From Anolis carolinensis (Eukaryota), in contig NC_085844.1 of assembly GCF_035594765.1 (NCBI RefSeq), positions 202,508,107 to 202,572,106 of the forward strand: DNA of 64,000 nucleotides. The letters run 5' to 3'. Shown here piece after piece: positions 5,901 through 35,570 of this stretch (within the stretch, counting starts at the first letter, position 1; each line of letters starts with the position of its first letter). Below the pieces are notes generated by a model. It saw only the letters and a list, made by a program, of their open reading frames with translations. It was not told where the DNA came from and did no database searches. The translations under genes were made by a program, and so were the position numbers.

Positions 5901-6287
5901 GCCATTCCAAAGATAGAATCAGTTTTGCAGCAGAGTAAAAATATTTTTTATATATTTTAAACATGCCTGTTTCAAGTTGAAGATGTTACAAAAGATAGTA
6001 GAACCAGATATATATTTAGAAAGAGCTCTCTAGACAGTGAACTAATTACAATTACAATTCTGGTCAAAACATATTTATGAAAGCTCTATTGAGTGAGTTA
6101 TTAAATATTGCTATTGGTCATATTATCCTTGGTACCAATATAATAGTTATCAGAAATTTAGATAGATCTTTAAGATCTCCCAAGCTTTCTAAATCTATGT
6201 ACCAAAACAACTTAGATCTTGCAATATTGGAGTTGCTTGGAAATTTGAACTCCTAGCGATTAAAGATTTTACATTCTTTTCAGTTTG

Positions 6288-7189
6288 TGTCAGGACCCAG
6301 GCTGCAGAGCACCAATAACCATACGCAGAGGCCAGAATCTATCTAATATCTTTATTAAAGAAATATATAAAGTCAATAAAAACAAGTGTAGGATATAGTT
6401 CAGAAGTAGACCTTTCAGGAAAGGTCAAATATAGTCCAGAAAAACAAAGTCCAATATATGATATTAAGGTCCAAAGTTATAATCCACTTCACCGAAACAC
6501 ACACTATTTTGCAAGCAATAGTGTGGGGAACTGTCCATAGTCTTAGAGGCTTAAGGTAAATCCGAATCAAGGGAAACAAGGCTGGGATCCGAGAAGCAGG
6601 ATCCGTGGTTTAAGACGCAAGGCAAGGCAAACTTGAGGCTTGGCAAGGTCCAACTTGAACAAGACAATCGTGGAACAAGAACTGAGTCCATAGAAATCCG
6701 TGGAACAAGGCTGGGCTGGGAACTTGATTCAGGAGCTGGGAACTGGAGTACGTAGTCTACACGCGATCTCACTCCACGAGCTGACGAATTGACTCCGCAA
6801 GGAATCCTTTGTGGCCAACATCTATATAGGATCTTGTTTTCCCGCCAAAGCACACTTTCTCTGGGGAACAAGAACCGAAACCTATACTGTCCAGATGCAG
6901 GACTCCTTAAACTTTCCCAAGGGAACAGACTTAATCATCTAATTGTCTGGCAGCTATCCTGGCGCTTCGGCGACTCGCCTCCCTAGCATGTCTATCTTGA
7001 TTATAATAAAGGCGGCGAGAAAATGGGGGAGATTTCGGCTCAAGGCTTGTTTGGCTGTCTTCTTGTGGGCAAACATCCTGCAGCTGCAAGGGCTCCAAAT
7101 CTGGCAGAAACGGTGGGAAACCCAAGTTTTCCTCTTCATCTGTCACAACAGTACTAGGAACAGGACTACATGGCCCATGAGACATCACA
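6288..7189 (-). mobile_element. Solo LTR (902 bp) of an LTR retrotransposon, probably Gypsy-type
   Basis: TGT...ACA termini; perfect 5-bp TSD GTTTG (6283-6287 / 7190-7194); TATA-like TATATA at 6828-6823; AATAAA at 6356-6351; homologous to the LTR at 20368-21246. Superfamily is inferred. Confidence 0.88.
6931..7188 (-). CDS. Putative 85-aa LTR-U3-encoded reading frame ending in RRSARIAAR
   Basis: Open from LTR nt 2 to TAA; peptide-level similarity to the frame in the second LTR. Confidence 0.55.
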   Translation of the reverse strand: MMSHGPCSPVPSTVVTDEEENLGFPPFLPDLEPLQLQDVCPQEDSQTSLEPKSPPFSRRLYYNQDRHAREASRRSARIAARQLDD

Positions 7190-18000: not shown

Positions 18001-20367
18001 GATGACTCCCATCACTGGAATGTAGCCATTGAAGGCTATAACCTCTTTCACAGAAACAGAACAAAGGGGAGAGGAGGGGGAGTAGCCATATATGTCAAAA
18101 ACATTTACGTTGCAGAAGAAATGGAACCGGGACTCAAAAAGATCTCATTGGTGGCGACTACTACAGACCTTTGAGCCAGGATGAAGAACTCAATGAAGCC
18201 TTCTGTCAGCAGTTGACCAAACAGGCACAAAGAAGAGATATAGTAGACATGGGCGATTTCAACTATTCCGATATCTGCTGTAAAACAAACTCGTCCAAGA
18301 GTACAAAGTCCAACAAATTCCTCACTTGCCTTGGAGAACATTTTATGGTCCAGAAGGTAGAAGAGGCAACGAGGGGATCCTCTACTCTTGATCTCATCCT
18401 AACAAACGCGGAGGACCTGATCAATGCAGTTGAAGTGGTTGGATCCTTAGGGGCAAGCAACAATGTGCTCCTGCAGTTTGCGATACAAAGAAAGGCCAAA
18501 ACTAAGACAAGTCAAAACATTCTGGACTTTGGGAGAGCTGACTTCCAAAAAATGAAGGAAATACTGAGTGGCATTCAGTGGATGCCAATACTAAAAGACA
18601 AGGGAGTTCAGGATGGATGGGAGTTTTTCAAAAGTGAAATACTCAAGGTGCAAATGCAAACAGTGCCAACAAAGAATAAAAATAAGACAAGTGCGAAGAA
18701 GCCAGAATGGATGTCCAAAGAACTTCTAACTGGGCTAATATTCAAAGGAGACATGCACAAGAAGTGGAAAAAGGGAGAAATCACCAAAGGAGAATTCAAA
18801 CAAATATCCAATTCCTGTAGGGAAAAGGTTCACAAGGCTAAAGCGGAAAACGAGCTCAGGCTTGCCAGAGACATTAAAAATAATAAAAAGGGCTTCTTTG
18901 CTTATGCCGGTAAGAAAAGGAAGAACAAGGAGGCGATAGGGCCTCTGCGAGGAGAAGACGGGGTTATGCTGACAGGGGATAGGGGAATGCAGAACTACTT
19001 AATGTCTTTTTAGCCTCAGTCTTCTCACAAAAAGAAAGCAGTCCTCAACCTCAGCAACATGGAGTGGACGAAGGATTGGGGGAAATCCAACCCCAAACAG
19101 GGACAGAAATTGTCCAGGAATACCTGGCTGCTCTAAATGAATTCAAGTCTCCAGGGCCGGATCAACTACACCTAAGAGTATTGAAGGAACTAGTGGAAGT
19201 TATTTTGGAACCACTGGCAATCATCTTTGAGAGTTCTTGGAGAACAGGAGGAGTCCCAGCAGATTGGAGGAGGACCAATGTGGTCCCTATCTTCAAGAAG
19301 GGAAAAAAAGTACGACCCAAACAATTACCATCCGGTCAGTATCACGTTGATACCAGGCAAGATTCTGGAAAAGATCGTGAAGGAAGTGGTCTGCAAACAC
19401 TTAGAAACAAATGCGGCCATTGTTAATAGTAAACATGGATTTATCAAAAACAAATCATGCCAGACCAAACTGATCTCTTTTTTCGATAGAGTTACAAGCT
19501 GGGTAGATGCAGGGAATGCTGTGGATGTAGCGTACCTGGATTTCAGTAAGGCCTTTGACAAGGGCCCCCATGACCTTCTGGCAAACAAGTTAGTCAAATG
19601 TGGGCTAGGCAAAACTACGGTTAGGTGGATCTGTAATTGGTTAAGTGAATGAACCCAAAGGGTGCTCACCAATGTGTCTTCTTCATCCTGGAAAGAAGTC
19701 ACGAGTGGAGTGCCACGGGATTCCGTCTTGGGCCCAGTCCTGTTCAACATCTTTATTAATGACTTAGATGAAGGGTTAGAAAGCATGATCATCAAGTCTG
19801 CAGACGACACCAAATTGGGAGGGATAGCTAATACTCCAGAAGACAGGAGCAGAATTCAAAACAATCTTAACAGATTAGAGAGATGGGCCGAAACTAACAA
19901 AATGGAGTTCAACAGAGACAAATGCAAGATACTCCACTTAGGCAGAAAAAATGAAATGCAAAGATACAGAATGGGGGATGATGTCTGGCTCGACAGCAGT
20001 ACGTGTGAAAAAGATCTTGGAGTCCTCGTGGACAACAAATTAAATGTGAGCCTACAATGTGATGCGGCGGTAAAAAAAGCCAACGGGATTTTGGCCTGCA
20101 TAAATAGAAGTATAGTGTCTAGATCCAGGGAAGTCATGCTACCTCTCTATTCTGCCTTGGTCAGACCACACCTGGAATACTGTGTCCAATTCTGGGCACC
20201 GCAATTGAAGGGAGATGTTGACAAGCTGGAAAATGTCCAGAGGATGGCGACTAAAACGATTAAGTGTCTGGAGAACAAGCCCTATGAAGAGTGGCTTAAG
20301 GAGCTGGGCATGTTTAGCCTGCAGAAGAGAAGGCTGAGAGGAGACAGGATAGCCATGTATAAATATG

Positions 20368-21246
20368 TGTCATATCCCAGCCGCCTTTGGGTTCTGTACC
20401 TGGTTCAGAAATGAACTTTGACCAGGATGAAGCTTACTCTGACTTTCCCCCTAGTTCTCCTCCGAGTTCCTTCCAATTACAGACCCCAGCTGTGGATAGC
20501 TCCGAGGCTTCCTTAATTGGGAGAGATACTGATAACATTACTCCCGTGGAAGAACCAGATGTTCCAAGCTCCCCAGGAAATGTATCCTTTAACAGAAGAC
20601 AGTTTTTTGCAGCAACAGAGATCCCAGACACAGCAGCTTTGCAGGAGTCAACGATTGGCATCTAGAGGGGATACTGGATAGCAGATTGCTTTGGGAACCT
20701 TTGGAGAGTTGGGTTCCCTTCGCTGTTATTAGATCTAACTTCTATAAAAGTGTCTTGCACTGTGAACTACTTGTGGTGTCAACGTAGCGACTTCACCGTT
20801 TCCAGTTCCCTGATTTCACCAAGCCGAGTCTCTTGTTTCCTGGCGGCCAAGCTGAGCTGCGAGTCCCGTTTTAATCCGGAGTGAATTCACGTCCTTTCCT
20901 TGTTCCTGAATCCAGATTGCTTTTAGCTTCGTCTTTTGCCTGCCTTGAAATCCAAGACTTTCTAGTGACTTTGGACTTTGTTATTTACTCCTGCTTCCTT
21001 GTTGTTTTCCCTGCTCAAGAACATTTCAACAGTTTTGAGCATGTTTCGGTTTCTGGACTTTGGACAATAATATTGGACATATCTCTTCAACGCTTTGGAC
21101 TAATTCATACCATTCCTTAAAGGACTATTGCTCACTCATCCTTTCCACTTATTCTTTCCTGAATTTATTATTGTTTTAATAAAGATATTATATGATTATT
21201 GGTCTCTGTTTGGTTTCCAGTGTTCAAGCTGCCTTGGGGTGCAACA
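20368..21246 (+). mobile_element. Solo LTR (879 bp) inserted into the CR1 ORF2
   Basis: TGT...ACA termini; perfect 5-bp TSD ATATG (20363-20367 / 21247-21251); removing it restores CR1 ...MYKYVRGSHREEG; TATAAAA at 20743-20749; AATAAA at 21178-21183. Confidence 0.92.
20369..20681 (+). pseudogene. Frameshifted homologue (~103 aa) of the LTR-U3 reading frame, ending LCRSQRLASRGDTG*
   Basis: Open from LTR nt 2. Removing one T from the T6 run at 20603-20608 gives a gap-free 26-aa alignment with the C-terminus of the other LTR peptide. Confidence 0.55.
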
Positions 21247-22682
21247 ATATGTGAGGGGAAGTCATAGGGAGGAGGGAGCAAGCTTGTTTTCTGCTGCCCT
21301 GGAGACTAGGACGTGGAACAATGGCTTCAAACTACAGGAAAGGAGATTCCACCTGAACATTAGGAGGAACTTCCTCATTGTGAGAGTTGTTCGGCAGTGG
21401 AACTCTCTGCCCCAGAGTGTGGAGGAGGCTCCTTCTTTGGAGGCTTTTAAGCAGAAGCTGGATGGCCATCTGTCAGGTGTGCTTTGAGTGTGATTTTCCT
21501 GCTTCTTGGCAGGGGGTTGGACTGGATGGCCCGTAAGGTCTCTTCCAACTCTATGATTCTATGAATTAAAATTACAGGAGCTCTGGCCAAGATCCAATCT
21601 GGCAACCTTTCACTAGTTAGACTTACAGATAACCAACCAAACCTCAGACCTTACACAATTCTTAGCTGCCTAACTATGAAATGCTCACCATGCTCAATGA
21701 TTCAAGTGTTCTCCAGAATTTGTGCACAGGTAGTTGGATAGGTGTTAAATTCACTCAGCAGAGGCTACCCAGACCATCCCACTTACCACCTTATCACATT
21801 GAAAAATGTCCCAGTTGTAGGACACTTCAGCCTCTATTCAAACATGGAGAGGTACTGAGCTCATCACATGAGTTAAACTACTTCTGGCTGTCATACATAG
21901 CCCTCCATGGTTGAAAAGAGGCAGAAGTCTTCTGAAAAGAGGGAACTCATCACATTGATAAATTTCCACCTTGTAGAACACTTCAGCCTCTTTTCTAGAA
22001 TGGAGAGGCATGGAGCTCATCACATGTTCCAGGGCTGAAAAAAAGGCTGAAATGTTCTGAAAGGAGGGAACTTTGAACATGGGCCAGCAATTGTGATTAG
22101 AGCTCCAATCCTATCAAACTTTACTTACATTTTTACTACAGAAAAACAGGTGTGATGGGAACCATCAAAGTTTCCTGTTCTATTTCATTTCCCAACCATC
22201 ATTAGTCTCTTGTATCCGATGAGGTTTGATGCAGATCAGTAGGATCCCATGGAAAGCAATGGTTTTAACCTGGATCTCTGTCTCTTGTATCCTCTGGGGT
22301 TTGGGGGAGAATGCTTTTTTCCCATGAGAAGATGAGATTTTAAACTGATATCAGTCTCCTTTAATGTAAAGGGCTTTGGGCAGGGCAAGAGGTCTCTTGG
22401 TTTGTGGATATTATTGTTTCTCCTGATTAAAAACAAAAAAGTAATATTGACCTTTTGATGAATGTATTGCCAGCTCTTAAAATATGATGTGTGAGAGTGT
22501 GATGGGGAAGCAGAACATGAAACAGGACTGCTGACGACGTAAGAGGGGTGATTTTCTACCTTAAAGGGACAGTCACCTATGCTTTCCCATCTCAATGTGG
22601 TGAGGTCATAACAAGAGTGTACTCAGCAAAACAATGTTTGAATGTGTTCTAAACCCTTTTTTGTCCTGATTTTTTGTCCTGA

Positions 22683-34775: not shown

Positions 34776-35570
34776 CAGTGGTTCCCAAACTTATTTGACC
34801 TACCGTCCTCTTTCCAGAAAAAATATTACTCAGTGCCCCCTGGAAAGGAGGGCATGGCTTATAGGGGTGGGCGTGGCTCCTGCTCAAGAGGGCGGGGCTG
34901 AGCCTCTCCATTAGTCCAAGATGCAGGGCTGGGAGGGGGAGGGGGAGGTGGGCAGGGCCACAAATGGGTGGCCAGGAGTGGGATGGGCGGAGTTCTGAGG
35001 CAGGGCTGAGAATCTATATTTCTCCTGAGGCGCCTGCCAGGACACAGGGGGTGGGGCTAGAGGAGGGGGCGGGGCCTCTTCCCAAGTGCCTGACGGGGCT
35101 GAACCTCTATACTCCACCCCCATGTTCTAACAAGCGCCTCAGGGGAGGTATACAGAGGCTCAGCACTGTCTTGCACTCTTTGGAAGGGGCCCCATCCCCA
35201 CCCCAGTCCCGCCCTTTAGTCCTAAAAGGCCTCTCAGGAGTAGTATAGAGGCTCAGCCCTGCCTTGGGCTCTTGGAAGGAGGCCCCACCCCCTTCCCTAG
35301 CTCTGCTCTCTGTGTCCTAACAGGCGCCTCAGGAGAAATATAGATTCTCAGCCCTGTTTCGGGCCCTTGGGAAGAAGCCACACCCACTCCTCTAGCTCCG
35401 CCCCCTGTGTCCTAACAGGCACCTCAGGTGCTCAGCCCTGTCTCTGGCACTTGGGAAGAGGCCCCGCCCCTCCCCGGCCCTGCCCCATCTCCTAATAGGT
35501 GCCATCACCGCCCTCCTGGATCGCTGCAGCGCCCACCAGGGGGTGGTAGCACCCACTTTGGGAATCACTG
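34776..35570. mobile_element. Non-autonomous hAT element, GC-rich, with internal direct and inverted repeats
   Basis: TIR CAGTGGTTCCCAAA / TTTGGGAATCACTG; perfect 8-bp TSD TTCTAACA. Confidence 0.9.

Follow-up and report, generated by a model that had tools for sequence, protein, structure and literature searches.

A 64,000-nucleotide stretch of the Anolis carolinensis genome (contig NC_085844.1, forward-strand positions 202,508,107 to 202,572,106; hereafter the window, to which all coordinates refer) contains a solo long terminal repeat (LTR) whose U3 region carries an open reading frame ending in RRSARIAA, a sequence similar to the nucleosome-binding core of HMGN proteins. This raises the questions of which protein the frame belongs to and whether its ending has a function. 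We found that the frame is the C-terminal end of Pol/integrase in full-length copies of the parent retrotransposon, and that the tail it encodes is under purifying selection, concentrated on the motif. Judged by its similarity to motifs of known binding mode, the terminal RRSARIAA likely serves as an arginine anchor by which the integration complex is tethered to the H2A-H2B acidic patch.

Pol read-through into the 3' LTR

The repeat at 6288-7189 is flanked on both sides by CAAAC and is therefore a solo LTR. Its features are the following.

6288..7189, minus strand: solo LTR (TG...CA) of a Ty3/gypsy chromovirus, here family 1; 902 bp, 95-97% identical to the LTRs of full-length elements L061-L066
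7190..7194, minus strand: target-site duplication (TSD) CAAAC, 5' side, 5 bp
6283..6287, minus strand: TSD CAAAC, 3' side, 5 bp
6931..7188, minus strand: U3 reading frame, 85 residues plus stop, the C-terminal end of Pol/integrase; 96.5% identical to the Pol end of L064
7117..7140, minus strand: acidic-aromatic patch DEEENLGF, start of the linker
6934..7017, minus strand: basic C-terminal segment, tail residues 58-85, predicted helix in a weak structure model of an L064 construct
6949..6972, minus strand: HMGN-like motif RRSARIAA, tail residues 73-80, compared with RRSARLSA, RRSARIAT and RRSSRLTS
6823..6829, minus strand: putative TATA box CTATATA, 3' of the frame
6789..6798, minus strand: GCGGAGTCAA, complement of the element's primer site (GTTTGACTCCGC in L063) and likely transcript 5' end for self-priming
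6351..6356, minus strand: AATAAA polyadenylation signal

The frame opens at nucleotide 2 of the LTR (7189-6288) and closes approximately 100 bp 5' of the TATA box. Its 85 codons (7188-6934) translate as VMSHGPCSPVPSTVVTDEEENLGF...FSRRLYYNQDRHAREASRRSARIAARQLDD, ending RRSARIAARQLDD, with the stop codon at 6933-6931. The original prediction for this DNA had described just such a frame, starting at LTR nucleotide 2 and stopping upstream of the TATA box (6829-6823), and had proposed that it is the tail of Pol/integrase reading across the polypurine tract (PPT) into the 3' LTR; both parts were confirmed in full-length elements. A DNA search of the genome, from which the best 40 of 5381 candidates were taken, included six LTR pairs. 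In all six family-1 elements, Pol passes its chromodomain, crosses the PPT, and enters the LTR at nucleotide 2 free of stops, terminating at the same stop as the solo-LTR frame. Twenty further stretches were fetched from matches to the primer site, and six without a chromodomain were excluded from the junction count. The other 14 are all open and in phase across the junction, with 13 reaching the motif and one (L148) interrupted before it. In-phase junctions were thus present in 20 of 20 chromodomain-bearing elements of the clade, and the junction phase is identical in the more distant L079-L082 and in L156, a relative of a second LTR family (family 2). Approximately 20 residues, spanning the PPT, lie between the chromodomain and LTR nucleotide 2; this chromodomain directly upstream of the tail was not seen in the original prediction.

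A separate U3 accessory gene, which had been put forward as the alternative, was rejected. HIV nef and mouse mammary tumour virus (MMTV) sag are coding sequences that overlap U3, but they are separate genes with their own transcripts, whereas the anole U3 frame is continuous with pol and has no start of its own common to the families.

Full-length copies encode gag and an overlapping pol, with no env. Pfam domains in Pol are ordered reverse transcriptase (RT), RNase H, integrase zinc finger and core, Tf2-type SH3, and Chromo (PF00385, E=1.2e-9), followed by the tail. The chromodomain residues F, W, and F align with the Y, W, F aromatic cage of HP1-family chains, all three positions being kept (for the group I cage definition, see PMC3605345). 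A PDB sequence search returned chromodomain matches only, and the closest protein matches are Tf2-like polyproteins from fish, frog, and fungi. The primer site is complementary to LTR sequence about 30 nucleotides after the TATA box, a self-priming arrangement of the kind described in PMC2864245. Applied predictively to family 2, this rule yielded 6 junctions versus 0 in controls, and the primer-site pattern has 4443 genome matches versus 1 control match. The first 100 of the 4443 are spread over 33 Mb of one contig, approximately 3/Mb versus 2.4/Mb genome-wide (centromeres unmapped). On domain order, chromodomain, and self-priming, rather than an RT tree, we assign the element to the sushi/Tf1-type Ty3/gypsy chromoviruses. 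Eleven elements consist of one open frame of 1256-1274 codons with the motif included, and most of these have 5' and 3' LTRs that are 99.7-100% identical; therefore, the clade has spread recently. Synonymous divergence in the LTR-encoded tail far exceeds that of the integrase core (1.41 vs 0.35 for L064 vs L134, with other pairs alike), which suggests either LTR exchange between internal backbones or faster LTR evolution. The solo LTR in the window is likely a passive remnant and probably inert, because the frame lies upstream of the LTR promoter and would not be transcribed from its own LTR.

Selection on the tail and the range of its motif

Coding constraint on the U3 frame had been suspected from the two LTRs of the window, and it was evident among genomic copies. 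In DNA-only alignments of four disjoint pairs, mismatches at codon positions 1/2/3 numbered 72/60/111 within the frame (p=4.3e-5) versus 110/141/124 downstream of it (p=0.56). Across seven pairs of natural copies, the ratio of nonsynonymous to synonymous substitution rates (dN/dS) for the whole tail was 0.25-0.63, and constraint was significant at p<0.01 in six of them. The region from motif to stop gave 0.08-0.16 in five pairs (synonymous sites were saturated in the other two), near the integrase core value of 0.05-0.09, while the acidic linker gave 0.29-0.96 and the 17 basic residues preceding the motif gave 0.32-0.90. Length differences between subfamilies are 21, 15, and 36 bp within the frame, as compared with many 1-2 bp gaps downstream, although net in-frame differences arise partly by construction, the compared copies being open frames. 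The linker is poor in basic residues, with 10 D/E versus 1 K/R within the first 52 residues of the window tail, and the tails that carry the motif are 85, 92, 97, 103, and 153 residues long, their linkers being acidic with almost no K/R. The acidic linkers thus vary in length while the motif is kept, which makes the linker elastic and leaves the motif as the part under constraint.

The best 30 family-1 copies include 28 with an open frame and 26 in which the motif reads RRSARIAA, which is encoded by three shared synonymous codon versions (10, 8, and 7 of the 30 copies). Across families, the third motif arginine is specified by AGG, AGA, CGG, CGA, or CGC, which argues against a DNA-level site. 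Of the first 30 primer-site loci, 26 also have the motif, as judged by position. The pattern RRSxR[LI] arose by chance in 106 of 200000 shuffles of the 85-residue tail. Near the start of the tail, a patch recurs across families as DEEENLGF (window 7140-7117, minus strand), TEGDFGF, and KEDFGF (L080, L158); we take it to resemble, loosely and inexactly, acidic FxGF docking motifs.

Beyond Anolis, the clearest instance is P0380, a chromovirus protein without an Anolis label that is 52% identical over the SH3 domain and chromodomain and ends RRKGGT-VMPHSDDVRRSARIAARV, with the same nine residues RRSARIAAR following a 7-residue spacer. Its PPT-LTR junction is read from protein; in DNA, an identical KKGGT-V junction is seen in L175. 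The closest relatives found for P0380 include frog-labelled proteins at approximately 59% identity, and it had no match in the viral contigs searched. Gene models from rattlesnake, viper, amphisbaenian, tegu, and wall lizard have the same DSV/DGV junction and acidic linker; these, like the snake and fish junctions generally, are read from protein alone, with the DNA pattern seen in L175. The motif is kept across anole families and in P0380, but is absent from snake, amphisbaenian, and fish tails. Overall, read-through looks widespread and the HMGN-like ending patchy. Several observations stand beside this. In the snake and amphisbaenian tails P0224, P0242, P0289, and P0363, an acidic linker is combined with a basic end (e.g. 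DARRRRQLARVRQQRSMKHL) that lacks the HMGN-like motif. Among the fish proteins, P0030, P0058, and P0137 for example end in RxxSP(E/D)(Y/F), apparently also LTR-encoded, often after RxRGRP, which we take to be AT-hook-like; both occur together in 28 proteins. The distant chromovirus proteins P0102, P0202, and P0212 either end RRSSRIEGG or have TRRSARQK a short way beyond the chromodomain; these may be convergent arginine anchors. Finally, P0227 is an NCBI-predicted anole protein in which an unrelated N-terminus is joined to a whole motif-bearing LTR tail, a possible exonisation of a solo LTR.

A candidate nucleosome anchor and its rivals

The RRSARIAAR ending was originally likened to HMGN proteins, and that resemblance not only stands but extends to a closer counterpart. 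RRSARIAA shares 6 of 8 residues with the HMGN core RRSARLSA and 7 of 8 with RRSARIAT of yeast Dot5. The Dot5 motif binds the acidic patch in a manner requiring its arginines 1, 2, and 5 as well as an intact patch (PMC13347269), and tardigrade Dsup likewise depends upon its motif arginines and the acidic patch (PMC12480509). The conserved arginines of the tail motif occupy the same positions 1, 2, and 5. Neither of the two tails matches any Pfam family at E<=1; the tail belongs to Pol and is not a member of the HMGN protein family. An AlphaFold2 model of the L064 chromodomain plus tail contains a helix at residues 138-164 with local pLDDT (the model's per-residue confidence) of 76-88, in a model that is weak as a whole (mean 52) and has low pLDDT over residues 62-128. 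A complex prediction for tail residues 51-85 with lizard H2A/H2B scored 0.01 (mark 0.34); as peptides and disordered partners are outside the calibration of the tool, this score weighs neither way. The ESM Atlas returned chromodomain clusters only, under 0.9.

An acidic-patch tether would fit into Pol as follows. The order is integrase core, SH3-like domain, chromodomain, approximately 20 residues across the PPT, and then the U3-coded tail, which would be retained on mature integrase. The acidic linker could act as a flexible spacer. The full-cage chromodomain would recognize methylated H3 and the motif would hold on to the face of the nucleosome, and this two-point binding may help the element to reach and hold chromatin. 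More broadly, we lean, with some reserve, towards the view that anole chromoviruses and at least one non-anole relative carry an integrase-borne, two-part nucleosome reader composed of an HP1-like chromodomain and an LTR-encoded HMGN-type anchor, a module that would have been swapped between lineages along with the LTR; in that slot, fish and snake elements would carry other end motifs.

A number of observations weigh against a nucleosome anchor. Position 4 of the motif varies (A, L, Q, T), and RRSxR[LI] follows the chromodomain in only 3 of 443 chromodomain-bearing proteins without an Anolis label (three or more such matches occurred in 8 of 1000 shuffles). The motif was found in 0 of 80 metagenome loci with relatives of P0380; the rattlesnake, viper, amphisbaenian, tegu, and wall-lizard models have, wherever their end is visible, a basic end without it; and fish tails are short (about 20 residues), with 46 of the 443 proteins ending RxxSP(E/D)(Y/F). 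One of the seven dN/dS pairs exhibited no significant whole-tail constraint (dN/dS 0.63, p=0.099), and the seven pairs are non-independent and were picked among open frames. The motif is predicted, in the weak model, to lie inside a continuous helix that would equally fit a role in DNA binding or nuclear import, and the anchor also depends upon the tail staying on integrase after protease processing.

The tail could instead be selected as part of integrase while its basic end serves as a nuclear localization signal (NLS) or DNA-binding helix, the HMGN likeness being incidental. The continuous basic helix, the basic ends retained by other squamates without the motif, and the NLS-like basic stretch described in plant chromovirus integrases (PMC3605345) all speak for this. 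However, it is RRSxR(I/L)A that is constrained, whereas the 17 residues that precede it are just as basic yet free to vary, the Ser and Ile/Leu are kept even though charge alone would not need them, and the identical 9-mer occurs in P0380; we therefore consider this alternative, the chief rival, unlikely, if worth keeping in view. It is also conceivable that the motif binds the patch away from integrase, as a cleaved or separately made tail that competes with host chromatin factors and, for example, weakens silencing. Overexpressed Dot5 disrupts silencing via the same motif (PMC13347269), family 1 and P0380 have a methionine at codon 2, and one predicted anole transcript, P0227, contains the tail. 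That methionine is missing from families 2 and 3, however, the frame runs on from the chromodomain without a break at each of the 20 junctions examined, and it lies upstream of the TATA box, which makes a free tail quite improbable. A chance open frame, or a conserved U3 DNA element such as an enhancer or factor site, has in its favor that young copies keep any open frame for some time and that the LTR end fixes the first codons. The codon-position, synonymous-haplotype, and dN/dS results largely refute it, leaving it barely credible: the third-position excess is confined to the frame, the motif exists as synonymous haplotypes, and subfamilies differ by 21, 15, and 36 bp there versus many 1-2 bp gaps downstream. 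An integrase-borne anchor would offer a precise candidate for how vertebrate chromoviruses reach chromatin and choose sites, namely one 8-residue motif for which the binding mode and the critical arginines are known, in an element family of which the anole genome has thousands of copies.

Relation to known systems and the rest of the window

In plant CRM group A elements, Pol also reads on into the 3' LTR, where a targeting segment is encoded (PMC3059260, PMC3605345), and the anole element shares this extension. It is nevertheless not a member of CRM group A: in the latter, a CR motif replaces the chromodomain, whereas the anole element has a group I chromodomain upstream of the PPT in addition to its LTR-coded module, and CRM is primed by tRNA-Met, whereas the anole element is self-priming. 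CRM is also centromeric; the anole element looks dispersed. In domain order, group I chromodomain, lack of env, self-priming site, and short TSD it resembles the sushi/Tf1-type chromoviruses of vertebrates and fungi, but differs from them in its acidic U3 tail of 85-153 residues with an HMGN-like end, the fish tails being about 20 residues with a different end motif. RRSARIAA has the three arginines that are essential in the HMGN core and its mimics Dot5 and Dsup; unlike these, it ends a retrotransposon polyprotein rather than a host architectural protein. Foamy virus Gag and murine leukaemia virus (MLV) p12 hold the integration complex on chromatin via the acidic patch (PMC9040877, PMC12336834, PMC11054761, PMC5072296). 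The anole tail would similarly be a retroelement peptide and candidate acidic-patch tether, but it is LTR-encoded and carried on integrase, while the former are Gag products of unrelated sequence. If the anchor is real, acidic-patch tethering, known from retroviral Gag peptides, would come to include the integrase of a retrotransposon, and a mobile element would join the convergent set of HMGN-like motifs (HMGN, Dsup, Dot5). It would also show that the U3 of these LTRs has a coding as well as a regulatory role, so that solo LTRs would scatter candidate nucleosome-binding exons across the genome. Full-text literature searches, which did not reach subscription journals or Repbase, turned up no paper on a retrotransposon integrase with an HMGN-like or acidic-patch motif, or on this U3 frame. 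Neither ORF nor open reading frame is mentioned in passages of an LTR-structure survey covering Sushi LTRs (PMC3601003). It may be that subscription papers or Repbase already record read-through in these lizard families.

The window contains a second, related LTR with the following features.

20368..21246, plus strand: solo LTR of family 2 (related, older), TSD ATATG
20369..20681, plus strand: family-2 U3 frame, frameshifted near 20603-20608 in the window copy and open over 103 residues in other copies
20640..20663, plus strand: family-2 motif position, CRSQRLAS in the window copy, RRSQRLAS in 10 of 30 copies

This LTR was also correctly said to open with the same kind of frame, the window copy having its frameshift in a run of T. 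The C-termini of the two frames had been aligned only after removal of one T, and the unedited genomic copies bear this out, since 16 of the 30 best-scoring family-2 copies are open through to the motif. In family 2 the motif has changed mostly at CpG sites (R to C, H, or stop), the pattern that decay after insertion would produce. The two window LTRs are homologous, with 67% identity over 153 bp near the 3' end, and synonymous sites of the U3 frame are saturated between them (proportion of synonymous differences, pS, 0.82). The genome search did not recover a full-length family-2 element with both LTRs (L073 has a family-2 5' LTR and a pol ending inside integrase), and none of the 5 matches to a PPT-junction pattern came from family 2, so that no family-2 3' junction was found by it; read-through in family 2 is based upon relatives at 74-80% LTR identity (L155, L156, L081). 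The second solo LTR interrupts a long interspersed element (LINE) fragment (18042-21562), which we take to be CR1-like, and another LINE copy at 53130-53728 is uninterrupted at the insertion point. The window also has arrays at 56385-56717 and 35001-35469, composed of 83-bp and 95-bp units with internal inverted repeats.
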